From IMG/VR virus record IMGVR_UViG_3300042259_000159: a DNA stretch of 64,000 nucleotides. One strand, written 5' to 3'. Of the stretch, positions 7,479-46,941 are shown in pieces (positions within the stretch are counted from its first letter, which is position 1; every line of letters begins with the position of its first letter). The notes beneath the pieces are model-generated. The model was given only the letters and a program-made list of their open reading frames with translations. It was not told the DNA's origin and made no database searches. Source of the stretch: a virus. A program made the position numbers and the translations under genes.

Positions 7479-8855
7479 ATGGAGATGTTTTTTAGCAACA
7501 AAGAGGTTATCAGGGCTTGGGAAAATGTTGTGAAAAAACTTAACGCCAGCGGTTTTAAAGGTGCCATTGTTGGCGGTGCAGTTAGGGATGTTTTTATGGG
7601 AAAGACTCCCACAGATATAGACATTGCTACAAATGCAACACCAGAGGAGGTTTGTAGCATCTTTAAAGGTGCTAAACTTGTTGGTGAAAGCTTTGGTGTT
7701 TGCCGTTGGAATGGCTATGAAATTGCTACTTATCGAAACGATGTCCACAACGGTATTGGTGATACTTGTTGCACCGTGAGGTATACAGACGATCTCATTG
7801 AAGACCTTAGGCGTAGAGACTTCACAATGAATGCTTGTGCATATGAGAGGCATCCTGACGGGACAACGCATTTTGTTATGGCACAGGCAGGTTGTCTGGA
7901 TGACATCGAGAATAAGCGTCTTGATTTTGTAGGCAATGCTGAAGATAGAATCAGGGAAGATCCCAACCGCAGCTTCAGAGCATACCGCATGATTTGCAAA
8001 ACAGGCTTTCTGCCGTCATATGCTACAGCAAAGATAATATACAACAGAGGTATTGTTGAAAAATATCTTCCGTACATTGCACCTGAGAGGATAGGTAAAG
8101 AGCTTATAAAATCTATGGAGGAGCCTTTCTCTTGGAATTTTTTTAGGTGTCTTTACAGGTCTGGTATTATGTACACTCTCATCCCTGAGATGGCACAGGC
8201 TTGGAATATTTGGGGAGGAAAATACCATGCAGAGTACGTTGGTGAACACCTTATGGCTGTTGGTATGGGTATCTCTGCAAAATTCCCCTTGCTGAGGCTT
8301 GCAGGGTATCTGCATGATGTTGGTAAGGGGGTAACACACGAGGATGGCAGCTTCATCCGGCATGAAAAAGAGGGCGTGCATATTGCGCGGAGGTTTCTTA
8401 AAAGCCTTAAGTTCTCTACAAAAGATACAGAGAAGGTTTGCAATATAATTCGTTGCCATATGCGTAGATTTGGTGAGAATGAAACGCCTGCTACAAACAG
8501 GCGAACCCTTGCATATCTTGCAAAACACAATGTCTGCACATACGATTTCATCCGTTTGCGGATTGCGGATCACAACGGCAACTTTGCATGCAAGAAGATG
8601 AAATTCAGAGATATTAAGTCCCTTGTCAGATGTTGGGACACCTATCAGTTTGAAAAACAAGCTGCCCATAGTAGGAAAATGCTTGCCATTAATGGCAGGG
8701 ATATTATGAAAGAGTTTAATATCCCTCCGTCAAGACTTGTTGGGGAGATGATTGAATTTGCCCATAATATTGTTCTTGACAATGTTGATAAAAACGAATA
8801 TAGTATCCTTATCAATGAAATTAAAAAGCGGTTCGGAGGTAGCAATGGCGAATGA
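7479..8855 (+). CDS. tRNA nucleotidyltransferase (CCA-adding enzyme) with HD phosphohydrolase domain
   Basis: Pol-beta nucleotidyltransferase motif GGAVRD...DIDIAT, RRDFTMNA; HD motif HLMAVG...YLHDVGK. Confidence 0.75.
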   Translation: MEMFFSNKEVIRAWENVVKKLNASGFKGAIVGGAVRDVFMGKTPTDIDIATNATPEEVCSIFKGAKLVGESFGVCRWNGYEIATYRNDVHNGIGDTCCTVRYTDDLIEDLRRRDFTMNACAYERHPDGTTHFVMAQAGCLDDIENKRLDFVGNAEDRIREDPNRSFRAYRMICKTGFLPSYATAKIIYNRGIVEKYLPYIAPERIGKELIKSMEEPFSWNFFRCLYRSGIMYTLIPEMAQAWNIWGGKYHAEYVGEHLMAVGMGISAKFPLLRLAGYLHDVGKGVTHEDGSFIRHEKEGVHIARRFLKSLKFSTKDTEKVCNIIRCHMRRFGENETPATNRRTLAYLAKHNVCTYDFIRLRIADHNGNFACKKMKFRDIKSLVRCWDTYQFEKQAAHSRKMLAINGRDIMKEFNIPPSRLVGEMIEFAHNIVLDNVDKNEYSILINEIKKRFGGSNGE

Positions 8856-27127: not shown

Positions 27128-27679
27128 TTATTTAACTCCTGTGCTTCCGTGACCACCACGATTTTTACCACTGAGGCTATCAACCTGTTTCAAAACAAAA
27201 CCCTCACTGCGCATCGTGGATGTTACCCTGAATTGGCAAACCCTATCATTTTTTGCTACTCTCCCATCACGCATAGCTATGACAGGGAAAAGCCACTCAT
27301 CCCCCTCACCGCAGTAGGTGTTATCAATAATGCCCATACTATTAGTGAGAAGAAATCCATAGTTTTTAAAGGTGGAAGATCGGGGAACAACATGTGCCTC
27401 GCTTCCCTCTGGTAGCTGCACTGCTATGCCAAGGCGGATTCTTAAATAATCGTTAGGATAATAATACCAATATTGTCCAGTATTTACCAAGGGCTTAAAA
27501 ATAATCTCCCCTGTGCTTTTACACATATACCCTTTCTCAATGCTAGAAACACGAAGGTCAATCCAATCCCCGATATCAATTACCTCCGGCGGGATAAGGT
27601 CTTTATCCAAAACCTTAAAACAAATCTCCTTTCTCAAAACTACCTCCTTTTTAGGGGGTCGTAACCCCCTTTTTTTCAA
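27128..27679 (-). CDS. dut: dUTPase
   Basis: PRSS, GIIDNTY, NRGGHGSTG motifs of trimeric dUTPases. Confidence 0.75.
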   Translation of the reverse strand: MKKRGLRPPKKEVVLRKEICFKVLDKDLIPPEVIDIGDWIDLRVSSIEKGYMCKSTGEIIFKPLVNTGQYWYYYPNDYLRIRLGIAVQLPEGSEAHVVPRSSTFKNYGFLLTNSMGIIDNTYCGEGDEWLFPVIAMRDGRVAKNDRVCQFRVTSTMRSEGFVLKQVDSLSGKNRGGHGSTGVK

Positions 27680-30600
27680 CTAAATGCTTTTATCTACAAA
27701 CTTTCTCTGTGGAAAATCAAATTCCCGCCTTGTTTTATTCCAAGCTTTTACGGGTGTAAAAAACCCAACAACCCTTGTCAGCTGTGTACTTATATCTTCC
27801 GAACATATGGGGCATGTACTGAAGGAACCCATAGAGACATGGGAGTTGATACACTCAGAGTATACGGTATTAATGGCAAAATGTTCACATCCACAACCCA
27901 AAGCAAAACAGATAATTTTCTTGGCCTGCTCTCTTGTCAGCCTCTGCCCGACAGTGGCATGAACAATCCCCCCGCCTGTTAGGTTTTTAGTATATTCTCC
28001 GTCAATTCTGAGCCTGTCCCACAGAGATGCCTCTTCCCACAAAGGAACAAACTGGTTTGCATAGAGAGGGTATTCTATAAAAGTATCGCCGTGAATGATC
28101 TTATCTGCGCTGCAAACTTTTACAGCCATACTCTCTGCTGGGATTTGCTCAATGTTGAAGACATATCCTGCGTTCTTCTTGGTATACAATCTAGCTTTTC
28201 TGTTAAGAAATGTCAAGATCTTTTTCTTCAAATCCCCCTCAACACCGAACCTTTGTTTAAGAACCTTTTCACACTCGTAAAGACCAAGAATACCAAACGT
28301 TGAAAAGAGCCTGTTGAGGTCTATCCACCCACGCGTTATAAAAGGCTGAAGACCTATTTGTTCAAGGACATGAATCAAGACCTTATGAGCAATCAGAATA
28401 TCTTTAGCAGCCTCTACACGGTACGTGTATATTTTCCAAAAATCATCAATACTCTCGGCCTCAATTGCCATCTTGTTGAAATTAAGAGTAACAACTCTAT
28501 GGCTCCCGATGCTGGAAAGAACACCGGCACCGAAAGAATTGGAGGTGGATGCCACATCTAACATCTCTTCATCATTGATCAATCGGCAACAGCTAGCGAT
28601 CTTTGTGCTCTCAGATGTGAAAATATTGTAGCGCGAAATGTCTCTATTAAGAAATATTTCCAAACTCTCTTCGTCTGCAAGGATGTAATCATCGCCGTCC
28701 TTAGTTTTTGAAATGTTCATCGTGCAAACAGGGAACCTGTAAGGCATCCCGTTATTTGAGGGATCTCCTTTATCAAAGATGTCTAGGAATATTTCCTGCA
28801 ATTCAAAAACATAGTCAACACACTCTTCTATATCTACAACACCACCATCTGAAAACATCCACAAAAGATGTTCCTTTATGATGTACCTGAGTTTGTGTTT
28901 ATCAAACACCGATACATTGGTAAAGGGACTCTCAACTCCGTCACGACTCAAATGGTTTACGCTGTGAATAAGCTGTTGAAACTCGTTTTCTATCTCTTTC
29001 CTCACAGCCTTATCGTTTTTAAGCACATCAAGGGGAACCTTATTCTTTATCATGAGAAGGTGAGCAACATCTATAAATACAGTACCTATGGCTAGAGCAC
29101 CAGCAACATGCGATGACATTTGGTGGATTGTCTCACACAGGGCGGCAATATAACTATTAACTCTTTTTGCCGGTTTAGAGGGCAATACTCCAAAAGTTCT
29201 TCCTTCTGTAATGAGATTTGTTGCGTTTAAAGAATAACAATTATGTTGCACCATTCCGTTTGCATAAAAACGGCCCGTTGCTGTTGTCAAATCATATACG
29301 TCTTGAAGCTCCTCTCTAAGCTTTCTTGTACTAGGAATGTCTTCAAGATTAAACCTGATGATTTTTACAACCCTGTTGCTTTCGCCCTTGGTGTTTGCTT
29401 TTTCATTATACTTATCATAGTCTTCTTTATGCATCTTCATCTTATCAGAAAGATCAACCATCTTATTCGTACTTGACGGGACAAAGGAAAGGGCATAAAT
29501 CGAATTAGAAATATCACTCCCTTTTATCCTTTTTCTAAGGCATCGAATACCTTCAATGCCTCTAAGGACGTCATAAAGTGTGTTTATTACTGCCATAGAC
29601 TGCAAACAAATCTCCACCCTGCCATTCTTTTTGTAGGTATATCCGTCCGCGTCTACAAGCCCCGCAACAAGTGCCTCTACAGAATCATTTGTCCAAGAGA
29701 GGATGTTCTTAGGAAGAACCTTTGTGAAGCTATTTTCTTTGTTCCCGAAACCAAAAAAGGCACTTACAAGAAAATTCATATCATAAGAAGACCAATTAAT
29801 CTGTCTCTCGACTTTATCACTGGGCTTAAAAAGATTCGCATCAGGAAACAAGTCTTTTATGATACTATAAATTCTTGAGTTATCAATATCGTTTTGATAA
29901 ACACTGCAAAGCGTTCCCCCTCTTGTAAATCTGAAAGAGCCTTTTATGTCCTTACCGTTCATTACGCCATCATCAACACAATACCCTTCAAAGTTCCCAT
30001 CACCAAGCATAAAGCCAAGAAGGTAGGCCAGCTTTTCTGGAACAATTATTGTTTTTTCCACGGAGGGCAAACAAGTCTCTGTCAAAACAGCATCCCCAAC
30101 AGAAAGTTCTGAGGCTATTTTTTCAGTTCCATCTTCCATATAGATTGGGTGGTTGTCTGTTACCAAAGCAAAGTGCCCTGCCTCTGTCTGATACAAAGAG
30201 AATCCTGTATCCGTTTTATGCTTGATAATACGTTGTACAGCAACCCATCCATTGTTTGTATCCCAAACCTCTATATTAACTTTTTCACTCACATTGCAGG
30301 CCAACTTACCGGAACGACCTTTTGCGGTGTTCTTGTTAGTGATGTTCGCACTCACATTATTACGCAGCATTGCTGTTGTAATCTCTAGATCTCTTGTAAG
30401 GCCTTTTGTGTTAATTTCCTCATGCGTACCCCTATTTTCGGAGTGTATTGCAAACATATTGAAAAGCTTTTTAAGAGGAATACAAATAATCTCTCCGTTA
30501 ATTCTGACAAAAACAGGCGTGTTTCCATAATACGAATATGGAAGGTTTAGCTTCGTGCTGTCGGAGATGGGAAGACTGAAATCCAACATTTCTCCTATAA

Positions 30601-30982
30601 GCCTTTTAGCCCTCTTCTTGCCGTAGAGTTCCTTCATAACACGGTAGAGGAAATCGTACCCTGCAATTTTTTTCTGGGGGGCACTTGCCTCACTCTGTAT
30701 TCCGGCAATTGTCTTCTCATTCTTATTAGCATTGTCATCAATAGAGACATCATTAATGTTTGCATTTAATTGTTTTTGAAACATCTTGAGAAAGTCTGTA
30801 TTGTCCTGCGAAAGACCATGCAGACGCATAAGTTTTTCAGCTTTTGTATCAATCTCTTCTTGAGAAAGGGTTGTTTTACGAGAAAGATTCCTTTTCAAAG
30901 CCTTAAGCATCTGTTTCCGTGTGTATTCAATCTCAGCATCATTTGTAAAAGATGAAGAAAAACCTTTAGCTATGCTATTCAA
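27680..30982 (-). CDS. nrdD: anaerobic ribonucleoside-triphosphate reductase NrdD (class III), interrupted by an intein
   Basis: C-terminal glycyl-radical-like TRVVGFF and CPICS zinc site; long ORF; likely TTG start at 30982 (AAGGAG 9 nt upstream) overlapping the nrdG stop; track ORF extends to 31051. Confidence 0.8.
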   Translation of the reverse strand: MNSIAKGFSSSFTNDAEIEYTRKQMLKALKRNLSRKTTLSQEEIDTKAEKLMRLHGLSQDNTDFLKMFQKQLNANINDVSIDDNANKNEKTIAGIQSEASAPQKKIAGYDFLYRVMKELYGKKRAKRLIGEMLDFSLPISDSTKLNLPYSYYGNTPVFVRINGEIICIPLKKLFNMFAIHSENRGTHEEINTKGLTRDLEITTAMLRNNVSANITNKNTAKGRSGKLACNVSEKVNIEVWDTNNGWVAVQRIIKHKTDTGFSLYQTEAGHFALVTDNHPIYMEDGTEKIASELSVGDAVLTETCLPSVEKTIIVPEKLAYLLGFMLGDGNFEGYCVDDGVMNGKDIKGSFRFTRGGTLCSVYQNDIDNSRIYSIIKDLFPDANLFKPSDKVERQINWSSYDMNFLVSAFFGFGNKENSFTKVLPKNILSWTNDSVEALVAGLVDADGYTYKKNGRVEICLQSMAVINTLYDVLRGIEGIRCLRKRIKGSDISNSIYALSFVPSSTNKMVDLSDKMKMHKEDYDKYNEKANTKGESNRVVKIIRFNLEDIPSTRKLREELQDVYDLTTATGRFYANGMVQHNCYSLNATNLITEGRTFGVLPSKPAKRVNSYIAALCETIHQMSSHVAGALAIGTVFIDVAHLLMIKNKVPLDVLKNDKAVRKEIENEFQQLIHSVNHLSRDGVESPFTNVSVFDKHKLRYIIKEHLLWMFSDGGVVDIEECVDYVFELQEIFLDIFDKGDPSNNGMPYRFPVCTMNISKTKDGDDYILADEESLEIFLNRDISRYNIFTSESTKIASCCRLINDEEMLDVASTSNSFGAGVLSSIGSHRVVTLNFNKMAIEAESIDDFWKIYTYRVEAAKDILIAHKVLIHVLEQIGLQPFITRGWIDLNRLFSTFGILGLYECEKVLKQRFGVEGDLKKKILTFLNRKARLYTKKNAGYVFNIEQIPAESMAVKVCSADKIIHGDTFIEYPLYANQFVPLWEEASLWDRLRIDGEYTKNLTGGGIVHATVGQRLTREQAKKIICFALGCGCEHFAINTVYSECINSHVSMGSFSTCPICSEDISTQLTRVVGFFTPVKAWNKTRREFDFPQRKFVDKSI
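29240..30298 (-). other. intein with LAGLIDADG homing endonuclease domain inside NrdD
   Basis: Hint block B VTDNHPIY; LAGLIDADG motifs LAYLLGFMLGDGNF and LVAGLVDADGY; C-terminal VQHN followed by Cys; N-terminal boundary uncertain (may extend to ~30535). Confidence 0.7.
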
Positions 30983-31490
30983 AGCAGTAAACTCCTTCTT
31001 TTGTAAGTTTAACATAATTATTATTATAAAGTTCTTGGTTAGACGAACCAAGTACGAGTTTTGTCCTTTGCCCTTTTGTTGTATCTGACTGGTGCAGTTC
31101 TTTTATATACTCTCCTGTTTTTATAAATTTGAAACCGTTAAGATTAAGGTATTTAACAGTGTCAATATCGTATCCAGTATAAATACATATGTTAAAACAC
31201 CCACCGTATTGTTCTAAGAACTGTGCTGTAAACCCTCTGTTGCAGGAGGCTAGCGGATCTCCACCAAGAAGTACAATATTATTTGTGCGGTATTTTAAGG
31301 TCTCCTGTTTACAATGGTTGTAGAAGTCTTCAATGGAAAATTCCACACCACCCTGATATTCAGGGTTTTGCAGGGAGGGGTTATGACACCCCTTACAGGA
31401 AAAATCACACCCACACATAAAAAGACTTACTGCCCACCCATCCTTTGAGGGGTAGTCTGTAAATGTCATCTCAGAACCTGCAAATCTCAT
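30975..31490 (-). CDS. nrdG: anaerobic RNR activating enzyme NrdG (radical SAM)
   Basis: CGCDFSCKGC radical SAM-type cysteine motif; adjacent to nrdD. Confidence 0.75.
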   Translation of the reverse strand: MRFAGSEMTFTDYPSKDGWAVSLFMCGCDFSCKGCHNPSLQNPEYQGGVEFSIEDFYNHCKQETLKYRTNNIVLLGGDPLASCNRGFTAQFLEQYGGCFNICIYTGYDIDTVKYLNLNGFKFIKTGEYIKELHQSDTTKGQRTKLVLGSSNQELYNNNYVKLTKEGVYCFE

Positions 31491-33489: not shown

Positions 33490-33950
33490 TTACTTATCTC
33501 TCTGGTAGTAGTGCTTTGATATTGCACTTCTTTCCATTTTTTGAATTTTTTTATTCTGAACGTCGGACCCATAACGTCCAGAACACGTTCTGGAACAAAA
33601 GGGCCCAGCTTTATTTTTAATGTTTCTCTGTGTCACCGTTGGCGTAAAAAGAGAATCGCAATATGGACACTTTACTTCTTCCACTCTCACCCTTACCACA
33701 TCAAGCGAAGCATGGGAGGATCTACACAAAACTTGTAAATTTTCAATTTTGTTGTTCAGTGGATTTCTATCAATGTGGTCAACTGTCTCAGATGGATCTA
33801 AAACTCTGCCCAGATGCACTTCCATTATAATTCTGGAAGCCTGTTTAGCAGTTCTTTTAATTCCATCATATAAAACAATGACCAGTCTACCGTCTTTCCT
33901 TAAATATGGCCCATAAATTTTTTTACACTCTGGGTACAATTTTTGAATGT
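33490..33950 (-). CDS. HNH homing endonuclease
   Basis: HIDRNPLNNKIENLQVLCRSSH; track ORF extends to 34023 but that overlaps tRNA-Leu, so the start is uncertain. Confidence 0.6.
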
Positions 33951-33953
33951 GTT

Positions 33954-34037
33954 TGGTAGGAGAAGAGAGATTCGAACTCTCAAGGAATAATCCGTCGAGG
34001 CTTAAACTCGATGTGTTTACCATTTCACCATTCTCCC
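33954..34037 (-). tRNA. tRNA-Leu (anticodon UAA), type II, CCA encoded
   Basis: Manual fold: acceptor GGGAGAA/TTCTCCT, anticodon loop TTTAAGC, long variable arm, T-loop TTCGAAT. Confidence 0.65.
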
Positions 34038-34045
34038 GTATTTTT

Positions 34046-34067
34046 TATCTACCATTCCGCCATTCCC
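34046..34067 (-). other. orphan tRNA 5' fragment (Leu-like acceptor + D-arm)
   Basis: GCGGGAATGGCGGAATGGTAGA with no matching 3' half. Confidence 0.4.
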
Positions 34068-34076
34068 GCATTTATT

Positions 34077-34153
34077 TGGTACCCACTGTGAGATTCGAAC
34101 CCACACTAATCAGTTTCTAAGACTGATGCCTCTGCCAAGTTGGGCTATACCAG
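34077..34153 (-). tRNA. tRNA-like gene (class I, anticodon UAG) with mismatched acceptor stem; probably chimeric or disrupted
   Basis: D-arm, anticodon arm TCAGT-CTTAGAA-ACTGA and T-arm fold, but 5' ACTGGTA does not pair with 3' AGTGGGT. Confidence 0.4.
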
Positions 34154-34184
34154 TATTATGCTTATTATTTTATTTTGAAAGGCC

Positions 34185-34235
34185 ATATGTATACACATAT
34201 ATATATATACATATATATATGTATAGAGCAACCAA
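34185..34235. repeat. TA-rich microsatellite
   Basis: atatgtatacacatatatatatatacatatatatatgtatag. Confidence 0.8.
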
Positions 34236-34412
34236 AATGGTTAAATAAAAAGGTGTTTTGTGGAGACACCAAACTCCTCCAGTTTTAGTGATCTGGAAAC
34301 AATAAGCGGCGCAGGTGCTCTTTAAAACACGTGCTACCAAGCGTATAAATTGTCTAGGGGATTTCACCAAACACATTATGTTATTGGAGGGATCTTTCCC
34401 TAGACTCAGTAA

Positions 34413-34485
34413 AGCTCCTGACAGGACTTGAACCCGCAACCGGCTGATTACAAATCAGCTGCTCTGCCAGTTGAGCTACAGGAGC
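34413..34485 (-). tRNA. tRNA-Thr (anticodon UGU), CCA not encoded
   Basis: Manual fold: acceptor GCTCCTG/CAGGAGC, D-arm GCTC..GAGC, anticodon loop TTTGTAA. Confidence 0.7.
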
Positions 34486-34489
34486 AGAA

Positions 34490-34561
34490 CAGAGGGAGAA
34501 GGATTCGAACCTTCGAATGACGGGACCAAAACCCGTTGCCTTACCGCTTGGCTACCCCTCT
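34490..34561 (-). tRNA. tRNA-Gln (anticodon UUG), CCA not encoded
   Basis: Manual fold: acceptor AGAGGGG/TCCCTCT, anticodon stem ACGGG/CCCGT, loop TTTTGGT. Confidence 0.65.
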
Positions 34562-34569
34562 AAATTTTT

Positions 34570-34646
34570 TGGCTCCGGCGGCAGGATTTGAACCTACATT
34601 CGCAATGGTTAACAGCCATTTGCCTTACCAATTCGGCGACACCGGA
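34570..34646 (-). tRNA. tRNA-Asn (anticodon GUU), CCA encoded
   Basis: Manual fold: acceptor TCCGGTG/CGCCGGA, anticodon stem AATGG/CCATT, loop CTGTTAA. Confidence 0.65.
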
Positions 34647-34691
34647 ATGAACTTTTTATTTGTTATCAGCATTGTTTTGCTTTATTTTAAA

Positions 34692-34770
34692 TGGTCTCGG
34701 TGATTAGATTTGAACTAATGATTATTCCTGCTCCCAAAGCAGGTGCCATACCAAGCTAGGCGACACCGAG
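34692..34770 (-). tRNA. tRNA-Pro (anticodon UGG), CCA encoded
   Basis: Manual fold: acceptor CTCGGTG/CACCGAG perfect, anticodon stem CCTGC/GCAGG, loop TTTGGGA. Confidence 0.6.
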
Positions 34771-35251
34771 ATCAGGTGTGGTACCAAACTCCACTATGGG
34801 CAGAGGTTATAAGAAGGTCCGTACATGATATAGACAGATATTCTTCCATAACAGCGGTACGGACGCTGTCTCATTTTTATATCTTTCAGTGTGCTATTAC
34901 GCCAAAGGGAAATTAAGCCTTACCAGTTACGGGGTGCCCTTTTACTATCCACAAAGAATTTCAAATCGCGTGCATTCTAAGTATCGGAAAATTCTACAAC
35001 CACTTAAAGTACACCTCGTTTAAGAGATAGCGACCTGTGCTTCGTCCCACTCTTTAAAGGATGGCTGCCTCAAAGCCCACCTCCTGAAAAATGCATGAAG
35101 GATTATCCCTCCTTCGCTAAATACAACCTATCAATTTTAAGGGTTCTTGTCAAGAACATTTTAAGGTTTTTGAAATTTTTGTTGAACGCTGATTTGCTAC
35201 GCGGGTACAGCGTTCGAAACCTCGATAGCATCCTTGCCGTTGGCAAAGCTG

Positions 35252-35393
35252 TCAGGAGCCGCAGGAGGAGAATTGAACTCCTCTGGCATCAACACGCAGT
35301 CACCACAACTACATCTACCGTTACGGGTATGGCTCCCCATCCTAGTCACCTGTTGATACCTTATAGGTTCAGCCCTACCAAGGGCACTGCGGC
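35252..35393 (-). ncRNA. tRNA-like structured RNA (~142 nt) with 7-bp acceptor-like stem and T-arm; possible intron-containing or disrupted tRNA
   Basis: GCCGCAG ... GAGGAGTTCAATTCTCCTC CTGCGGC; body too long for a standard tRNA. Confidence 0.3.
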
Positions 35394-35399
35394 TTAAGT

Positions 35400-35620
35400 G
35401 GGTTGGTTGGTGCAGATTGTGAACGTACCCCCGCCTATAGAGGCGGAAGCTTCCTGCTTCAGCGAGAACAGCACCAGTAACTCCGAAGAGTTGTGGCGAA
35501 TTACACTCTCTCCACAGGCGTAAATTCCCGTGCGACCCACGGTACTTTATGAGTTACGCTAGGCAGATATTCGCCCAGCTTCTTCTCTAATATTTATTGC
35601 AGCGTTCTTGTCACGGTTAT
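35400..35620 (-). ncRNA. putative TnpB guide (omega) RNA region overlapping the tnpB 3' end and right end
   Basis: Position relative to tnpB; subterminal hairpin CCGCC-tataga-GGCGG at 35431-35446; no direct RNA evidence. Confidence 0.35.
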
Positions 35621-36795
35621 GATGACTGCCACACTTAAGGCAATCCCATTCCCGCACAGACAAGTCTTTGGTATCCTTGTTCTGGTAGCCACAGACATGG
35701 CATAGCTGACTGCTTGGATACCATTTGTCTATCTTGATAAGTTGCTTACCCTGCCATGCAAGTTTGTATTTCAGCATACTTGTGAACATGCTCCAGCCGT
35801 TGTCGGATATGGATTTACCAAAGTTGAACTTGCCACCCTTCTTTCGCTTCGCCATGTCCTTTACGCTAATGTCCTCTATGCCAATCACATCATAGCGGTC
35901 TGCAAGATAACGAGCTTTCTTATGCAGGAAGTCGCGGCGTTGATTAGCAATTTTCTCATGGAGTACAGCCAAACGTAGTCTTTGTTTATTCCTATTACGG
36001 CTCCCTTTTTGTCTCTTGGAGAGTTTTCTTTGTGCCTTGATCAATCTCTTTTCGGCTTCCCGTAAGAAATTTGGATAATCGGCGTTGTCCTCATCGGAAG
36101 CAACATACATCCCGTGCATAGCAAAATCCAATCCAAGAAAATTCTTCGGTATGATGGGAAGTATTTGGTTTTCATACTCCACCAAAATACTAATATAGTA
36201 TTTTCCTGACGGTGTTTTACTTATGGTTACAGTCTTTATGGTGCTATTCTCCATCAATGGACGATGCAGACACAGCTTTACCCAACCTATTTTCGGCAGC
36301 TTGACTTTGTTTCCCTCGATTCTTACAGAGCCATGTTGGTTGTTCGTAGAATATGAAGCATGACCCGCTTTCTTCGACTTGAAGCGTGGCTTGCAAAAAT
36401 GCTTCCTATTGCTCCAAAAGTTGTTATACGCCTTGTTCAGGTTTATTTGGGCATTGGCGAGAGCAAGGCTGTCAACCTCTTTCAGCCAAGGAAACTCTTT
36501 CTTGTACTGTGCAGGTGTGTTGTTCAGCCTCTCTCCTGTTTCCTTATAGTGATCAAGACGATCTCCAAGCATCTTGTTATAGATGAATCTGGCACTGCCG
36601 AAAGTCTTGGCAAACATAATCTTCTGTTCAATTGTCGGGTAGAGTCTATATCGGTATGCCTTATTCACTATAATCACCTGCCTTGATTTTCTATGTATTT
36701 ACGAATTGTCTCAAACGGAGCAATTATCTGGCTCAACTACTTACGTAAATTCGCTAGACACACCTTCATCCCCCACCTTAGAGGTGGAGGGCTTC
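35425..36795 (-). mobile_element. IS200/IS605-family element, TnpB-only (IS1341-like)
   Basis: tnpB ORF flanked by similar subterminal hairpins at 36773-36787 and 35431-35446; no tnpA seen. Confidence 0.7.
35559..36677 (-). CDS. tnpB: TnpB (IS200/IS605 OrfB, RuvC-like RNA-guided nuclease)
   Basis: N-terminal YRYRLYPT; C-terminal zinc finger CHVCG...CLKCG; 372 aa. Confidence 0.85.
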   Translation of the reverse strand: MIIVNKAYRYRLYPTIEQKIMFAKTFGSARFIYNKMLGDRLDHYKETGERLNNTPAQYKKEFPWLKEVDSLALANAQINLNKAYNNFWSNRKHFCKPRFKSKKAGHASYSTNNQHGSVRIEGNKVKLPKIGWVKLCLHRPLMENSTIKTVTISKTPSGKYYISILVEYENQILPIIPKNFLGLDFAMHGMYVASDEDNADYPNFLREAEKRLIKAQRKLSKRQKGSRNRNKQRLRLAVLHEKIANQRRDFLHKKARYLADRYDVIGIEDISVKDMAKRKKGGKFNFGKSISDNGWSMFTSMLKYKLAWQGKQLIKIDKWYPSSQLCHVCGYQNKDTKDLSVREWDCLKCGSHHNRDKNAAINIREEAGRISA

Positions 36796-36799
36796 TGGC

Positions 36800-36843
36800 G
36801 GGTTAGGTTAAATCCCTTGTGTCTACTAATTCCACCAATCGGG
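36800..36843 (-). other. partial tRNA-Leu-like 5' fragment next to the IS left end
   Basis: GCCCGATTGGTGGAATTAGTAGACAC duplicates the 5' end of tRNA-Leu at 36940 but lacks a foldable remainder. Confidence 0.4.
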
Positions 36844-36853
36844 CTAAAATCTT

Positions 36854-36940
36854 TGGTGCCCAATGCAGGACTCGAACCTGCACGCCATTTCAGGCAGGAG
36901 GGCTTAAACCTCGTGTGTCTACCAATTCCACCAATCGGGC
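36854..36940 (-). tRNA. tRNA-Leu (anticodon UAA), type II, CCA encoded
   Basis: Manual fold: acceptor GCCCGAT/ATTGGGC, anticodon loop TTTAAGC, long variable arm. Confidence 0.6.
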
Positions 36941-36949
36941 TAAAATCTT

Positions 36950-37033
36950 TGGTGCCTCAGACAGGATTCGAACCTGCACGGATCTCTCCACTTGGTCCTA
37001 AGCCAAGCGTGTCTGCCATTCCACCACTGAGGC
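36950..37033 (-). tRNA. tRNA-Leu (anticodon UAG), type II, CCA encoded
   Basis: Manual fold: acceptor GCCTCAG/CTGAGGC perfect, anticodon stem CTTGG/CCAAG, loop CTTAGGA. Confidence 0.65.
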
Positions 37034-41438: not shown

Positions 41439-41922
41439 AGATAACTGCCCTGTACACAGGAAACTGTGTATGTGTATCTCATTAAAACGGGGAACCCTAA
41501 GTGTACACGCATAAGGGAATCCCGTGACTACGCAAGCCGAAAAAGGAGTAGGCATGAAAAATTTAGGATTTATGGGTTTTGATAAGTGTGCGGATATGTT
41601 CTGACCTAGAGAAGGGTTTTTCATGCTCTTCTACTGTAAGGAGGAATAAGGTTGGAACAAGCACGGTACATAGGATCTATAGAAGAAAAACGCATACTTC
41701 CATATCTAAGAATTTTTCTTGGGAGTAGTTGTAACGACTAGTTCATAAGAACGTAAGACACAAGTAGTCCTTAAGTGCAAGGACAAGGTGTTTGAAACAT
41801 GAGACACTCTAACAAGTAATGTTGAGGGTGAAGAGATAGTCTGAACTGTATAGAAATATACAGCAGGAGAACATTTTAATGTTTTTCCGGCAGATGCCTT
41901 ACGAACATCTGTGAACATTTTG
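41439..41922 (+). other. group I intron 1 in terL (no ORF)
   Basis: R-like gtaacgactagtt at 41731 and S-like gaagagatagtctgaact at 41830; ends in G; boundaries +/-3 nt. Confidence 0.6.
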
Positions 41923-42199
41923 GGTGCCGCAGGTTCGGGAAAGTCATACATAATGAATATGATACCTTTGAGGTATGTCGATTGCCCCAACTTTAGGGGG
42001 ATTGTCTTCCGAAGGGAAACGACACAGCTTACAGGTGAAGGGGGGATGTGGGATACAGCAACGGAGATATACTCTGAGCTGCCTAAAAATATCAGGCCCA
42101 AAATATTGAAACATAACCTGAGAATGATTTTTCCGAATGGGGCAAAAATTAAGTTTTCACACATGGAAAATGATAATGATTTCAGGAAACATCAAGGGT
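41923..42199 (+). CDS. terL: terminase large subunit, exon 2 (Walker A)
   Basis: GAAGSGKSY ... FSHMENDNDFRKHQG. Confidence 0.65.
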
Positions 42200-42453
42200 T
42201 AATTAGTAGCCCCTTGTGTTGGTGACAGCGCAAGCAAACTAACCTAATTCGGTGGAAGCCCAAACATGTAGGATGTGGGTGATACCGAGCAAGCCACGGC
42301 GTGTGTAACGACTAGTTCTTAGGAACGTAGGCCCAAGCGGGTCGAAACGGTTAGCATCTTATTAAGATGAAGATATAGTCTACTCTGCATGGAAACATGC
42401 AGCGGACACTTTATGTGTCGGGCAGATGTTAGCGCCATCTGTTGAATATTATG
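42200..42453 (+). other. group I intron 2 in terL
   Basis: R gtgtgtaacgactagttcttagg at 42301; S gaagatatagtctactctgcatggaaacatgcag at 42369. Confidence 0.6.
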
Positions 42454-42562
42454 TACAATATACCCTGATATGCTTTGATGAGGCAACACATTTCACTTTC
42501 CAACAAGTTGAATACTTAATGTCACGTATGAGAAGTAAAAGTAAGTATGCTTCTCGTATGGT
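42454..42562 (+). CDS. terL: terminase large subunit, exon 3 (Walker B)
   Basis: QYTLICFDEATHFTFQQVEYLMSRMRSKSKYASRM. Confidence 0.6.
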
Positions 42563-42846
42563 TCTGTCGTGGATTACGCGACATGTATGGCGAAAGCTGT
42601 ACTGGCAACTGTGTGAACTCAGGGAAACCTTAGCTGCTGCAATTGGGCAGAGGAAGAAGGCAATCCTGAGCGAAGCCTTCCCACCGGGAAGGAACGTGCA
42701 ACGACCATCGAAAGCGTAACACCTGTTACAGTGAGTAGAGTACACCACACATGTGTGGTGGAAGCGCACAGCCCCTAACATGTAACGATGAGGGTGAAGA
42801 TATGGTCTGAACCTACAGAAATGTAGAAAAAGGTAAACAAATACAG
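42563..42846 (+). other. group I intron 3 in terL
   Basis: Shared 48-bp motif caatcctgagcgaagccttcccaccgggaaggaacgtgcaacgaccatc; S-like gaagatatggtctgaacc at 42796. Confidence 0.55.
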
Positions 42847-43162
42847 GATAATCGGTAACCCAGATCCTGATAGTTGGCTTTTGCCTATGGTAGAGTGGTA
42901 CTTAGATGAACAAGGATACCCCGACCAGTCTAAAGATGGGGTTGTAAGATGGTTCATTAGAAAGAATGGTGAGTTTATCTGGAGGGATACAGAAGAAGAA
43001 ATCTATAGAGATTTTGGAACAGGCCCGTCTATACGCCCTGTATCCTTTACATTCATCTCTGCAAATATCTATGATAACCCTATTATGATAGAGACCAATC
43101 CAGACTATCTTGCAATGCTTGAAGGCCTCAACGAGGTTGATAAGGCAAGATTACTACGCGGT
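42847..43162 (+). CDS. terL: terminase large subunit, exon 4
   Basis: IIGNPDPDSWLLPMVEWYLDEQGYPD...; the NP motif is only in frame once intron 3 is removed. Confidence 0.6.
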
Positions 43163-43444
43163 TAACAGTGGCCGCATATAGTAGTGATATTATATGAAAA
43201 ATTGTGTGAATTCAGGGGACACCTAAACAGGCAACGCTTTGTGCTGTAGGCAATCCTGAGCGAAGCCTTCCCACCGGGAAGGAACGTGCAACGACCATCC
43301 TGAGTAGGAGTAGGGCCAAGCGGTTCCGAAGCGCACAACATCTCATTGAGATGATGATATGGTCTGATCTATATGGAAACATATAGCTGACACGGTGTAT
43401 ATTACGTGTCGGGCACGTCTTAGCGAGACGTGCTGAACAAAATG
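43163..43444 (+). other. group I intron 4 in terL
   Basis: Same 48-bp motif at 43250; S-like gatgatatggtctgatctatatggaaacatatag at 43371; 3' end ...ctgaacaaaatg. Confidence 0.55.
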
Positions 43445-44167
43445 AACTGGTATGCTAGACCACAGGATAGTGGATACTTTAAAAGAGATTGGCTGCAACG
43501 TTGTGTTGAGGCACCTACTGATACAAAGTGGGTACGTGCTTGGGATAAAGCAGCTACAGAGCCGAGTGACACAAACCCCTCTCCTGACTATACAGCTTGT
43601 ATAAAGATGGGGAAAGATAGAGCAGGAAACTACTACATTGCTGGCGATTTTGTGGAAGAAAACTATGATGAAGACAGCAAGACATATGGCAGGTTCAGGA
43701 AAAGAGCAGGTGCAAGAGATAATATCATCTTGAAACAGGCACTTGCTGATGGCCATGATTGTGAGGTTGTTCTTCCTCAAGACCCCGCTGCTGCGGGTAA
43801 GACGGAATACATTGAATCAGCAAAGAAATTAATAGAGCAAGGTATCCGTTGCAGAAAGGATGTGGTTGCATCTAACAAATCTAAGCTAATAAAGTTTTCA
43901 CCGTTTTCTGCATCATGCGAGAATGGGCTTGTTTACATCTTGGATGCAACATTTACCCAAAAAACATTGAATGCATTTTATACAGAGCTTGAATCTTTCA
44001 ACGGAGAAGCAAGCACAAGAACACGAAAGGATGATTGGGTTGACTGCACAGCAATGGCATTCAACTACCTATCTAAAAAAAGTGTACTTCCCAATTTTAC
44101 ACTAGATGAGTGGGGAGGTACATCGGTAAAAACACCCCTCTCAATTGTGAGGGCCAACTTTCATTAA
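43445..44167 (+). CDS. terL: terminase large subunit, exon 5 (nuclease domain)
   Basis: WVRAWDKAAT...DYTACIKMGKDRAGNYYIAGDFV; the five exons total 1500 nt (500 codons). Confidence 0.65.
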   Translation, partial: NWYARPQDSGYFKRDWLQRCVEAPTDTKWVRAWDKAATEPSDTNPSPDYTACIKMGKDRAGNYYIAGDFVEENYDEDSKTYGRFRKRAGARDNIILKQALADGHDCEVVLPQDPAAAGKTEYIESAKKLIEQGIRCRKDVVASNKSKLIKFSPFSASCENGLVYILDATFTQKTLNAFYTELESFNGEASTRTRKDDWVDCTAMAFNYLSKKSVLPNFTLDEWGGTSVKTPLSIVRANFH

Positions 44168-44178
44168 GGAGGGCACTG

Positions 44179-44885
44179 GTGGTAAAAGAGGGCAGCAAGT
44201 CTGCTACAAAAACAACCACTTCTAAGAAATTCAACCTATCTGAAAAAGGGTATATAGGACTTAATCAGGTAAATGGCCGCATTTATGAGGAAAGTCGTGA
44301 TGCTTTAAGGTTCCCTAATGCGACAAAGACCTTTAAAAAGATGTCCTATGACCCTGTAATATCCGCTGCAAATTCCACAATAGATCTTATGATAGGTCGT
44401 GTGCAGTGGTTCTTCGATGTTCCTGATACAGCCAGTGATAAGGCAAAAGAAGCAGCAGAATTTTTAAATTACTGTATGAACAGCATGGATATGGGAACAT
44501 GGGAAGATTTCATTACTGAGTGTGGTAGCTATAGACGTTACGGCTTTCACATAGCGGAAAAAGTCTACAACAAGGTTAAAGAAGGGAAGTGGAAGGGAAA
44601 GTATAAGTGGAAAAAACTACCAACAAGAGCACAAGACACCATTGAAGAGTGGGTCTTTAGTAAGGATAACAGGGAGCTTTTAGGCTTAAAACAGTCAACA
44701 AGAAATGTGACACACCCACTGGCATTAAAGAGCCTTACAGGCTATATAGAAATACCAAGGTCAAAATTCATACATTTTGCCTACGATGGGTATAGAGATA
44801 ACCCAGAGGGAAGAAGCCCGTTAGTTGGTGCCTACATCCCTTGGACATATAAAACACTCATAGAGGAATATGAGGCTGTCGGCGT
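44179..44885 (+). CDS. portal protein, exon 1
   Basis: GTG start 6 nt after AAGGAGG; portal-sized product after splicing. Confidence 0.55.
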
Positions 44886-45826
44886 TAATTATAGCGCCTT
44901 TATGTATTGATACATAAAGCAAACTCCCTTAATTCAGGGGAAGCCCTAACGTTGAGACGAGGGTAATCCTGAGCGAAGCCTTCCCAACGGGAAGGAACGT
45001 GCAACGACTAATAAGTCAAATAAACAACACATTAGTGTATGGAGAGTATTTTATGAAAACTTCAAAAGAAATTAGGAACCTTGTCATTGCTATGCTGTTT
45101 GGAGACGGCACATTGAATGCTAAAGGTTATTTGAGCATGCGTCACTGCATAGCGCAAAAAGACTATATAGATTGGAAACGAAAACTTCTAGTAAGTGGTA
45201 TATCTATGACTGACTGTTATTATGTTAGTAATAACGGGTATGGTGCATATGAAGTTAGAAGTAGAGTTTACAAATTTATGAAGCAATATCGTAAGGTAAT
45301 TTATGGTAGTGGTAGAAAAAACATTACAGACCGTAGAATCCTGAATAAGCTCACGCCGCTTGGTTTATCCATATGGTATATGGATGATGGCGGGTTATCT
45401 CAGAAGAAAAACAAGGATGGTGAAGTAGTAGCAAACGAGCTGATACTTAACACATATCTTAGTAGAGAAGACAACCAGAAGATTATTGATTACTTCAATG
45501 AAGTTTGGGGTATAAGATTTACTCAGGTAAAGAATAGAGGTCTTTATCGTCTCCGTTGCGGTACAGCGGAGGCTAGGAAATTTATAGAAATCGTAAAGCC
45601 ATATGTCTCCCAAGTACCGAGTATGGCACACAAAATGAAGTTAAAAGTAAAATAGTCTGACTATCGAACACACGTAATTTTTACGGAAGTTAGTAGAGTA
45701 GAACCAAGTGGTTCGAAACGGGGAGGTTCTTAGAAATAAGAACATGATATAGTCTGGTCTGCATGGAGACATGCAGGAGTTCATAAGAGAACCGGAGAAG
45801 ATTAACGACCTTTTCTGAACACAACG
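44886..45826 (+). other. group I intron in portal gene carrying a LAGLIDADG homing endonuclease ORF
   Basis: 48-bp shared motif at 44960; S element gatatagtctggtctgcatggagacatgcagg at 45746; 3' end ...ctgaacacaacg. Confidence 0.6.
44999..45655 (+). CDS. LAGLIDADG homing endonuclease (intron-encoded)
   Basis: LVIAMLFGDGTL and LSIWYMDDGG motifs; probable start at ATG 45053. Confidence 0.7.
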   Translation: MQRLISQINNTLVYGEYFMKTSKEIRNLVIAMLFGDGTLNAKGYLSMRHCIAQKDYIDWKRKLLVSGISMTDCYYVSNNGYGAYEVRSRVYKFMKQYRKVIYGSGRKNITDRRILNKLTPLGLSIWYMDDGGLSQKKNKDGEVVANELILNTYLSREDNQKIIDYFNEVWGIRFTQVKNRGLYRLRCGTAEARKFIEIVKPYVSQVPSMAHKMKLKVK

Positions 45827-46070
45827 AGCTAAAGACCTTGGGGGTATTCCTCTTATAGGTGTGGATGTTGATTACCTTGCTAAAGCACAGGAGAACCCTG
45901 CATCAGCAGAAGCCGCTGTTGTAGAGGCACTGAAGCGTGATGCAGCAAATATGCATTCAGGTGATCAATCCTACATGCTCCTTCCTCTTGCTTACACACA
46001 GGATGGGGGGAAACCACTCTTTGATTTTAAACTTGTTGGAGTGGACGGTGGTTTGCAAATAAGCCACGGT
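45827..46070 (+). CDS. portal protein, exon 2
   Basis: In-frame continuation (V)AKDLGGIPLIGVDVDYLAKAQ...ISHG. Confidence 0.5.
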
Positions 46071-46401
46071 AGATGGAAACATCTATAAAAATAAACCTAT
46101 CTAATTGCTGGGAAGTCTTGTTAGGCTTAATGTACAATACAGAGTGGTGACACTCTGCGATACTGTAAAAATCATTAAGATAGAGATAATCAGCAGCCAA
46201 GCTTAAGCCTCCAGACAGATAAAGGAGGAGGCTTTTGAAGGTTCAACGACTAGTTCTTAGGAACGTAGGCCCAAGCGGGTCCAAACGGTAGGGTTCCTCC
46301 AGTGCGGCTGAGGAATAAGATATAGTCTAGTCTGTATGGAGACATACAGGTGCAGGTAAAGCTGCCGGAAAGGTCTAGCGAGCCTTTTTGAATACTAAAC
46401 G
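46071..46401 (+). other. group I intron 2 in portal gene (no ORF)
   Basis: R ggttcaacgactagttcttaggaacg at 46241; S gaataagatatagtctagtctgtatggagacatacagg at 46313. Confidence 0.6.
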
Positions 46402-46941
46402 GGAAAGCAATATAATACTGATGATATTATAAAAAGAAAGCAGAATGAAATATTAATCTTGTATCTTGCTGATGTTTTAAAGCTTGGTACAGATACGCAC
46501 GGCAGTTTTGCGCTTGCTGATAGCAAGAATGCTTTACTCGGCTTTGCTATTGACCGCCATTTGAAGTTTATAGCTCAAACATTAAAAAGAGATTTGGTTG
46601 TACAAACCCTGAACATAAATGGTTTCGATCTCGATAAAAGCGAAATTCCCACTCTCCAACACACAGAGCTTGACAGTGTAGATATAGATGTCTTTTCTAA
46701 GTTTATCCAGCGTGTTGCTGCTGTTGGATACCTGCCGCGAACACCGGAGCTTATCAACGAGGTTCTCAAGAAGGGGGACTTCAAATATCGTATAGATGAA
46801 GAGATGAGTAACGAGGAGTTTGATAAACTCTTTCCTGAGGCTGTTTCAAGATCGGGTGATGGGATGAAGAGTGCAGGAGAAGGAACGTCAAACAAGGTGG
46901 GTGGTGCAGATAACAGTACGTCAAACAAGGAGAACGCTTAA
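46402..46941 (+). CDS. portal protein, exon 3
   Basis: Open frame from the intron 3' G; three exons total 1491 nt (497 codons). Confidence 0.55.
   Translation, partial: GKQYNTDDIIKRKQNEILILYLADVLKLGTDTHGSFALADSKNALLGFAIDRHLKFIAQTLKRDLVVQTLNINGFDLDKSEIPTLQHTELDSVDIDVFSKFIQRVAAVGYLPRTPELINEVLKKGDFKYRIDEEMSNEEFDKLFPEAVSRSGDGMKSAGEGTSNKVGGADNSTSNKENA

Follow-up and report, generated by a model that had tools for sequence, protein, structure and literature searches.

Our analyses of a 64,000-nucleotide stretch of viral DNA (IMG/VR record IMGVR_UViG_3300042259_000159, hereafter the window), part of a tailed-phage genome as judged from its gene content, indicate that its nrdD gene for the anaerobic ribonucleotide reductase (RNR) NrdD very probably carries a class 1 intein that can splice and that contains a LAGLIDADG homing endonuclease domain, a reading that draws on residue conservation and on a predicted structure. 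The intein (29240..30535, minus strand, as are all nrdD features below) is an in-frame insertion of 432 codons, or 1296 nucleotides. It extends from Ser1 (Ser173 of the open reading frame, ORF) to Asn432 (ORF Asn604) and is followed directly by Cys605, the putative +1 nucleophile of splicing and, by alignment, the universally conserved active-site cysteine of RNRs.

Extent of the intein and its absence from a sister phage

The boundaries of the insertion were established by comparison with six intein-less homologues (654-690 amino acids, 54-59% identical), which run ...LxPY|C[WY]A... straight across the insert and thereby bound it, to the residue, as Ser173..Asn604. The N-extein aligns with the N-terminal part of these intein-less NrdDs as far as the conserved PY. 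An earlier note on this DNA had judged the NrdD ORF to be oversized by 350-430 amino acids and had proposed, at 29240..30535, an intein bearing an endonuclease domain with two LAGLIDADG motifs; the surplus over the intein-less homologues is 432 amino acids, the interval corresponds exactly to Ser173..Asn604, and the proposal itself holds. The landmarks it had listed are likewise in place: TDNHPIY of block B at ORF residues 298-304, the two LAGLIDADG motifs at ORF residues 341-354 and 458-472, and the terminal HN followed by Cys (MVQHN|C) at ORF residues 600-605. It had left the N-terminal junction at either Cys252 or Ser173. Both the alignment and a sister contig select Ser173; Cys252 was rejected, being an unconserved position in a low-confidence loop of the structural model whose choice would leave 79 residues unexplained.

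The sister contig (ENA ERZ15185563, 15 kb; L001) is 93-97% identical to the window in nucleotide sequence over ~8 kb and lacks precisely the 1296 nucleotides of the intein. When the extein ends of the window are joined, they differ from L001 at a single position in 80 nucleotides, the empty site in L001 reading AAACCTTCCATAT|TGTTATTCTTTAAACGC. The L001 nrdD gene carries a different intein, of 338 amino acids (L001 1840-2851, CFKGDQEVLI...PTGMDTHN|C), whose insertion splits the cysteine pair of ...KIASC|CRLIN..., immediately ahead of the Cys that corresponds by alignment to the radical Cys290 of phage T4; this place is empty in the window. The two contigs thus form a clean natural pair, with the first site (site a) filled and the second (site b) empty in one and the reverse in the other. 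Comparing the two fixes the homing site at single-nucleotide resolution and points to recent intein turnover in this phage lineage. The precomputed Pfam annotation of the L001 NrdD reports NRDD only and leaves the 338-amino-acid intein unflagged.

After removal of both inteins, the nrdD coding sequences of the window and L001 are 96.06% identical (97% in the N-extein). They differ by 79 nucleotides and, at the protein level, by 13 amino acids over 669 aligned codons (stop included), as expected from purifying selection on the exteins. These comparisons also bear on whether the insert might be an accessory domain native to this NrdD lineage and not a mobile intein, a possibility to which we attach practically no weight. 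A sub-threshold Pfam score (see below) is all that speaks for it, and alignment rules it out: the intein-less NrdDs, comparison with which the earlier note had proposed as a check, skip the segment exactly, and the segment is missing from the 96%-identical allele and from many homologues. Moreover, it has a predicted Hint plus LAGLIDADG fold and parts Tyr(-1) from the catalytic Cys, residues that are neighbors in the Thermotoga maritima enzyme (PMC4493059).

A family of inteins at the same site

In this clade, NrdD is a hot spot for inteins. In a MAFFT E-INS-i alignment of 65 sequences, site a (PY|C) is occupied in 23 and site b (SC|C) in 16; three additional sites, E|SPFTN, FPV|C and GA|C, are filled in two, two and one of the sequences, respectively. 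A first mapping with hmmsearch/hmmalign and an intein-less profile had smeared the boundaries and was set aside in favor of this alignment. All 23 site-a inteins (22 besides that of the window) begin with Ser-Tyr-Tyr and end with His-Asn, followed by Cys. In two of them, P0023 and P0024, the endonuclease is deleted or degenerate and the splicing domain is intact, as would fit an advanced phase of the homing cycle. The window intein shows no such decay. Three NrdDs of the clade (P0006, P0009 and P0023) reach 1476-1937 amino acids and contain three inteins each, differing in which of the five sites are filled.

When the intein alone was used as query in an exhaustive HMMER search of 1.84 billion cluster representatives, 198 matches lay at E <= 1e-3; 55 of them reached <= 1e-10, and 29 reached <= 1e-30. 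Within the 55, 53 are NrdDs, the matches starting mostly at residues ~125-175. Among more distant site-a inteins, 47 junctions could be resolved, with Ser as the first residue in 45 and Cys in two. A tblastn search detected no relative of the window intein in 50,697 deposited phage records, and megablast of the 12 kb around nrdD against deposited phages gave short matches only, in the tRNA region and in unannotated stretches. From these two results, no deposited or cultured relative was identified. A word-index protein search with the intein alone returned nothing although clear homologues exist, which we ascribe to a limit of that search.

Splicing domain

The predicted Hint domain consists of two lobes. 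The N-terminal lobe (30053..30535; intein residues 1 to ~161) includes block A (SYYGNTPVFVRING, 30494-30535), an NX-type Lys-His pair with H106 (30215-30232) and block B with T126 and H129 (GHFALVTDNHPIY, 30140-30178). The C-terminal lobe (29240..29380; intein residues ~386-432) includes block F with Asp415 (VYDLTTATGRFYANG, 29255-29299) and block G (MVQHN, with His431-Asn432, 29240-29254). Blocks A (SYYxxTP), B (TxxH), F (VYDxxT) and G (HN), and Cys+1 with them, are conserved in every one of the 23 allelic inteins. Across the allele alignments, S1, Y2, Y3, T6, H106 (preceded by K or R), T126 and H129 are invariant in the N-lobe and V413, D415, T418, G421, F423, M428, H431 and N432 in the C-lobe, Y414 being invariant or nearly so. 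Between blocks A and B lies a poorly conserved variable insert of ~60 residues (30281-30463), partly disordered in the structural model, where residues 66-81 form a low-confidence loop. By analogy with the recognition region of PI-SceI, one might guess that this insert contacts DNA.

With residue roles and class definitions taken from PMC4031507, the signature residues of class 1 inteins are all present: Ser1, the Thr and His of block B (B:7 and B:10), the Asp of block F (F:4), the His and Asn of block G (G:6 and G:7) and Cys+1. The class 2 mechanism, which needs Ala1 and a Ser at G:6, was rejected (the window intein has Ser1 and His431), and so was the class 3 mechanism, which needs a Cys at F:4 with the WCT signature (the window intein has Asp415). 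Within class 1, a conserved His preceded by Lys or Arg upstream of block B, the NX motif, marks Ser1 “oxyester” inteins (PMC10189870). With an N-lobe profile, which was needed for the match, K105-H106 is matched to K60-H61 in the N-intein of Neq Pol, His61 being its NX equivalent (PMC10189870). The window intein carries this [K/R]-His pair in the expected place and would on that ground belong to the oxyester subgroup. Its 24 C-terminal residues align with the Neq Pol C-intein in a single-sequence search of the PDB that gave marginal hits only.

Endonuclease domain and predicted structure

The LAGLIDADG homing endonuclease domain occupies approximately 29393..30046 (intein residues ~164-381). 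It has two motifs, LAYLLGFMLGDGNF (29990-30031; LLGFMLGD179G) and VEALVAGLVDADGYT (29636-29680; VAGLVDAD297G), each ending in an acidic residue and Gly and both conserved in 21-22 of the 23 relatives. G178-D179-G180 is nearly invariant, D297-G298 invariant, and D295 invariant or nearly so. An AlphaFold2 model of ORF residues 168-605, built with 20 homologues in the alignment, has a mean predicted local distance difference test score (pLDDT) of 86.1 and a predicted template-modelling score of 0.87, with two loops only below a pLDDT of 50; the endonuclease domain is modelled with high confidence. The model combines a predicted Hint fold with a predicted LAGLIDADG fold. Its top Foldseek matches in the PDB are endonuclease-bearing inteins (TliVMA, 1.4e-21; PI-PfuI, 2.5e-17; PhoVMA; intein homing endonuclease II, 2cw7, the same protein as PI-PkoII; PI-SceI), and its central domain matches the I-DmoI fold.

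Position of the intein in the enzyme

The exteins encode an NrdD that appears functional: they align end to end with T. maritima NrdD, the gene for the activating enzyme, nrdG, is adjacent, and gene calls on two contigs of public Logan assemblies yield exactly the 1100-amino-acid precursor. The spliced protein aligns over residues 50-666, near its whole length, with T. maritima NrdD (4COI/4U3E, 3e-63). In this alignment, Cys605 falls on T. maritima Cys125 (T4 Cys79) and Tyr(-1) on Tyr124 (PMC4493059). In the solved enzyme Tyr124 and Cys125 are adjacent, and Tyr124 is conserved in the T. maritima subclass (PMC4493059). The two cysteines of site b correspond to Cys329 and Cys330 within SCCR 328-331, and the RVVGFF of the glycyl-radical segment to RIVGYL. 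Both Cys329 and Cys330 are essential by mutagenesis, the second aligning with T4 Cys290 (PMC4493059). Judged from these alignments, the window and L001 inteins both take a catalytic Cys of the host protein as their +1 nucleophile. Inteins that borrow an essential residue of their host in this way would be hard to lose and, since the window intein sits directly before the active-site Cys, the precursor cannot be active.

Proposed splicing and homing

In the mechanism that we propose, an NrdD precursor of 1100 amino acids (124.4 kDa), inactive before splicing, would be translated, and the first ~160 and last ~47 residues of the intein would assemble into a Hint domain capable of self-excision. 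Ser1 would attack the Tyr(-1)-Ser1 bond in an N-O acyl shift aided by Thr126, His129 and probably His106. The N-extein would then pass to the thiol of Cys+1, forming a branched thioester, after which Asn432 would cyclise with assistance from His431 and free the 48.6-kDa intein. A final S-N shift would leave an ordinary ...LPY-CYS... bond, the ligated junction reading ...STKLNLPY-CYSLNATNLITEGR (...LNLPY-CYSLNATN...). The product would be an NrdD of 668 amino acids and 75.8 kDa in which the same Cys serves in catalysis. At the DNA level, the endonuclease would, in mixed infections, cut the intein-less allele across ...CCTTCCATAT|TGTTATTCTT..., the site as found in L001, and repair from the intein-bearing copy would spread the element.

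Several points weigh against a splicing-competent, homing intein and have to be set beside this scheme. Splicing and DNA cleavage, like the succession of reactions given above, are deduced from the sequence and a predicted structure. The Pfam Intein_splicing family (PF14890) scores 30.3 bits against a gathering score of 35.8, a curated cut-off and not a biological criterion (E 4.3e-07, profile positions 31-155 only); we attribute this weak score to the interruption of the model by the endonuclease and the A-B insert. Likewise, LAGLIDADG_3 reaches 17.5 of 22.5 bits and Hom_end 14.5 of 21.1, on the second motif only. Seven residues after the Asp of block F, the window intein has an Arg. In other inteins, such as Mtu RecA, this position is usually a His. 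A 100-nucleotide mismatch profile of the spliced window and L001 coding sequences revealed no clear co-conversion pattern around site a, so that the polymorphism may reflect either a gain or a loss. Finally, Ser1 with Cys+1 requires an uphill transfer from oxoester to thioester, and Ace-TerL, the nearest homologue of GOS-TerL, is inactive because of this pairing (PMC11766414).

This last difficulty leads to the question of whether Ser1 is the first nucleophile at all. The Ser1/Cys+1 combination is uncommon and thermodynamically unfavorable, a rare pathway according to a 2025 review that gives frequencies for the other five pairings only (PMC11766414), and direct attack by Cys+1, as in class 2 inteins, is chemically possible (PMC4031507). 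Even so, we find it improbable that Ser1 is bypassed. It is present in all 23 close relatives and nearly all of the more distant site-a inteins, the signature residues of classes 2 and 3 are not matched (PMC4031507), and the invariant NX-type [K/R]-His marks Ser1 oxyester inteins (PMC10189870); furthermore, GOS-TerL shows that the class 1 path is possible for Ser1/Cys+1 (PMC11766414).

Another conceivable explanation is that the insert no longer splices, nrdD being a disrupted pseudogene and the phage relying on the ribonucleotide reductase of its host. In its favor, some intein-bearing phage RNR genes may be degenerating, as proposed for Campylobacter phage nrdA (PMC3653736). We nevertheless consider this very improbable, given a frame open through 1100 codons, splicing residues that are all intact, the small number of amino acid replacements in the exteins relative to the nucleotide changes, and an nrdG gene that has been kept and is translationally coupled.

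The state of the endonuclease is less certain than the identity of the intein. Conservation of its motifs indicates that it is probably still active, and we regard as unlikely, although deserving consideration, a late stage of the homing cycle in which the endonuclease is dead and splicing is kept, the element persisting because it is seldom lost precisely and an imprecise loss would destroy NrdD. Decay is seen among site-a relatives: P0023 is without most of the first half-domain and the motifs of P0024 are degenerate. The weak Pfam LAGLIDADG scores and the missing co-conversion signal beside site a would agree with it too. However, the motifs, D179, D297 and the NSFTK segment are all preserved in the window intein, as they are in 21 of 23 relatives; the domain is confidently modelled, and a near-identical phage with an empty site attests that targets exist. 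We thus favor an intein that would both splice and home.

Gene, reading frame and genomic context

The nrdD ORF as listed (27680..31051, 1123 amino acids) probably begins too far upstream. The likely start is a TTG at 30982, preferred because of an AAGGAG 9 nucleotides upstream and of the same start in L001; the precursor gene would then be 27680..30982, with 1100 codons and a stop. The N-extein (30536..30982) has 149 amino acids counted from this TTG and ends in ...KLNLPY. The C-extein (27683..29239, 519 amino acids) opens with the +1 Cys605 (29237-29239) and includes the empty site b, ASC|CRLIN (28574-28603, between 28588 and 28589), and the glycyl-radical segment TRVVGFF (27758-27778). Pfam NRDD matches ORF residues 600-1110, the C-terminal ~520 residues (2e-67), and NCBIfam PRK08271 matches two stretches of the ORF (7e-121). 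The NCBIfam equivalog cut-off for NrdD is missed (404.6 versus 545), which we ascribe to an interrupted, divergent phage sequence. Directly upstream lies nrdG (30975..31490, minus strand) for the activating radical-SAM enzyme, its 3' end and stop overlapping the nrdD TTG by 8 nucleotides. Its product matches phrog_626, the anaerobic RNR small subunit (5.4e-19), and the NrdG orthologues on L001 and L002 match Pfam Fer4_12. The NRDD domain, PYC, SCCR, the C-terminal glycyl-radical segment and the adjacent NrdG together place the enzyme among class III RNRs of the T. maritima-like subclass.

Elsewhere, the window codes for a DnaB-like helicase, a family A DNA polymerase, an ATP-dependent DNA ligase, a dUTPase, ThyX, capsid, protease, tape measure and baseplate proteins. 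In L001 an extra MT-A70-family methyltransferase gene (L001 4312-4857) lies between the dUTPase-like and DsbA-like genes, without counterpart in the window (~27128-27137). Five group I introns lie on the plus strand (42190-42402, 42559-42828, 43153-43386, 44876-45191 and 46043-46349; Rfam RF00028, 51-96 bits). The gene for the large terminase is interrupted by three of them (Terminase_6N piece, 41911-42225; Terminase_6C piece, 43430-44167), and a portal gene of Mu type by the other two (its pieces lie at 44110-44910 and 46459-46941). Between the portal pieces, an ORF of 218 amino acids for a LAGLIDADG_2 endonuclease (44999-45655, plus strand, Pfam 93 bits) adjoins or sits inside the intron at 44876-45191; it represents a second LAGLIDADG enzyme, from another Pfam family.

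The window also has eight tRNA genes on the minus strand (33954-37033: four Leu, Thr, Gln, Asn and Pro). Within this region, a TnpB-like ORF (35559-36677, minus strand) with HTH_OrfB_IS605, OrfB_IS605 and Cas12f1-like TNB domains (phrog_506, 2.5e-119) has pairs of tRNA-Leu(taa) and tRNA-Leu(tag) on either side (33954-34145 and 36854-37033). An HNH endonuclease ORF (33490-34023, minus strand; phrog_14913, 3e-20) probably starts further downstream than listed, since ~70 nucleotides at the 5' end of the listed ORF are shared with a predicted tRNA-Leu (33954-34037, minus strand). The megablast matches of the tRNA region to deposited phages fall at ~34708-34767, overlapping tRNA-Pro, and at ~35033-35086, where no tRNA was called. 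A gene for a CCA-adding enzyme or poly(A) polymerase-like protein (7479-8855, plus strand), with PolyA_pol head, HD and tRNA_NucTran2_2 domains, fits the phage's own set of tRNAs.

Comparison with known inteins

Inteins in phage RNR genes, including nrdD, are already documented (PMC3653736, PMC12880540), and the one described here is of a familiar type and not a new category; new are the details of its insertion site, its nucleophile pair and the clean pair of occupied and empty genomes. An appropriate annotation would be nrdD with an intein (precursor of 1100 amino acids, mature protein of 668) in place of an oversized or fused protein, and precursor residues 150-581 should be dropped from RNR phylogenies.

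The solved inteins closest in structure, TliVMA (7qsu), PI-PkoII (2cw8, the same protein as 2cw7), PI-PfuI (1dq3) and PI-SceI (1vde), bear endonucleases as well. They share 11-21% identity with the window intein and reside in the V-ATPase, DNA polymerase or class II RNR of archaea and yeast, as opposed to a phage protein here; the Ser1/Cys+1 pair and the extra A-B segment of ~60 residues distinguish the window intein from them. With respect to its nucleophiles it resembles GOS-TerL, a class 1 intein of phage origin with Ser1 and Cys+1 (Bachmann & Mootz 2015, as described in PMC10189870 and PMC11766414). GOS-TerL, however, is a naturally split mini-intein in a terminase, without endonuclease and reported without the NX histidine (PMC10189870), whereas the window intein is contiguous, includes an endonuclease and keeps, without exception in its family, a [K/R]-His that aligns with Neq Pol His61. 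We found no literature description of contiguous, endonuclease-bearing Ser1/Cys+1 NrdD inteins, the reviews consulted crediting the pairing to split GOS-TerL alone. Ser1/Cys+1 is conserved throughout the site-a family, in 23 of 23 members, together with the NX-type His, and the sequences of this one family already show that the pairing is not rare in metagenomes. Dozens of natural Ser1/Cys+1 sequences with the NX His could serve to test ideas on oxyester activation (PMC10189870), and the family might yield splicing tools. Because the ester-to-thioester step needs the active-site Cys as a free reduced thiol, one may also speculate, although we doubt it, that the site-a inteins are a sizeable Ser1/Cys+1 family whose splicing is redox-gated, a conditional switch and not a purely selfish element. 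If true, maturation of the oxygen-sensitive NrdD would be tied to reducing, anaerobic conditions.

RNR genes are well-known targets of such elements, with ~80 RNR inteins curated in RNRdb by 2009 (PMC2795772) and nrdD fragmented in 95 of 104 Jug phage genomes (PMC12880540). The nearest precedents are the nrdD genes of Clostridium phages c-st and D-1873, interrupted by inteins with LAGLIDADG-like motifs (PMC3653736). There, as in the window, the large subunit of a phage anaerobic RNR is interrupted. The c-st intein, however, begins with Cys1 and lies at site b (...ALASC|CFDG...ITHN|CRLT), before the Cys aligned with T4 Cys290, and site a of c-st is empty (KPYCYAYS); it is thus of the L001 type and not of the window type. 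Phage T4 offers a parallel of another kind, a mobile group I intron in the same phage gene. Unlike an intein, this homing element is excised from the RNA through a ribozyme, and its endonuclease, I-TevII, belongs to a different family from that of the window.

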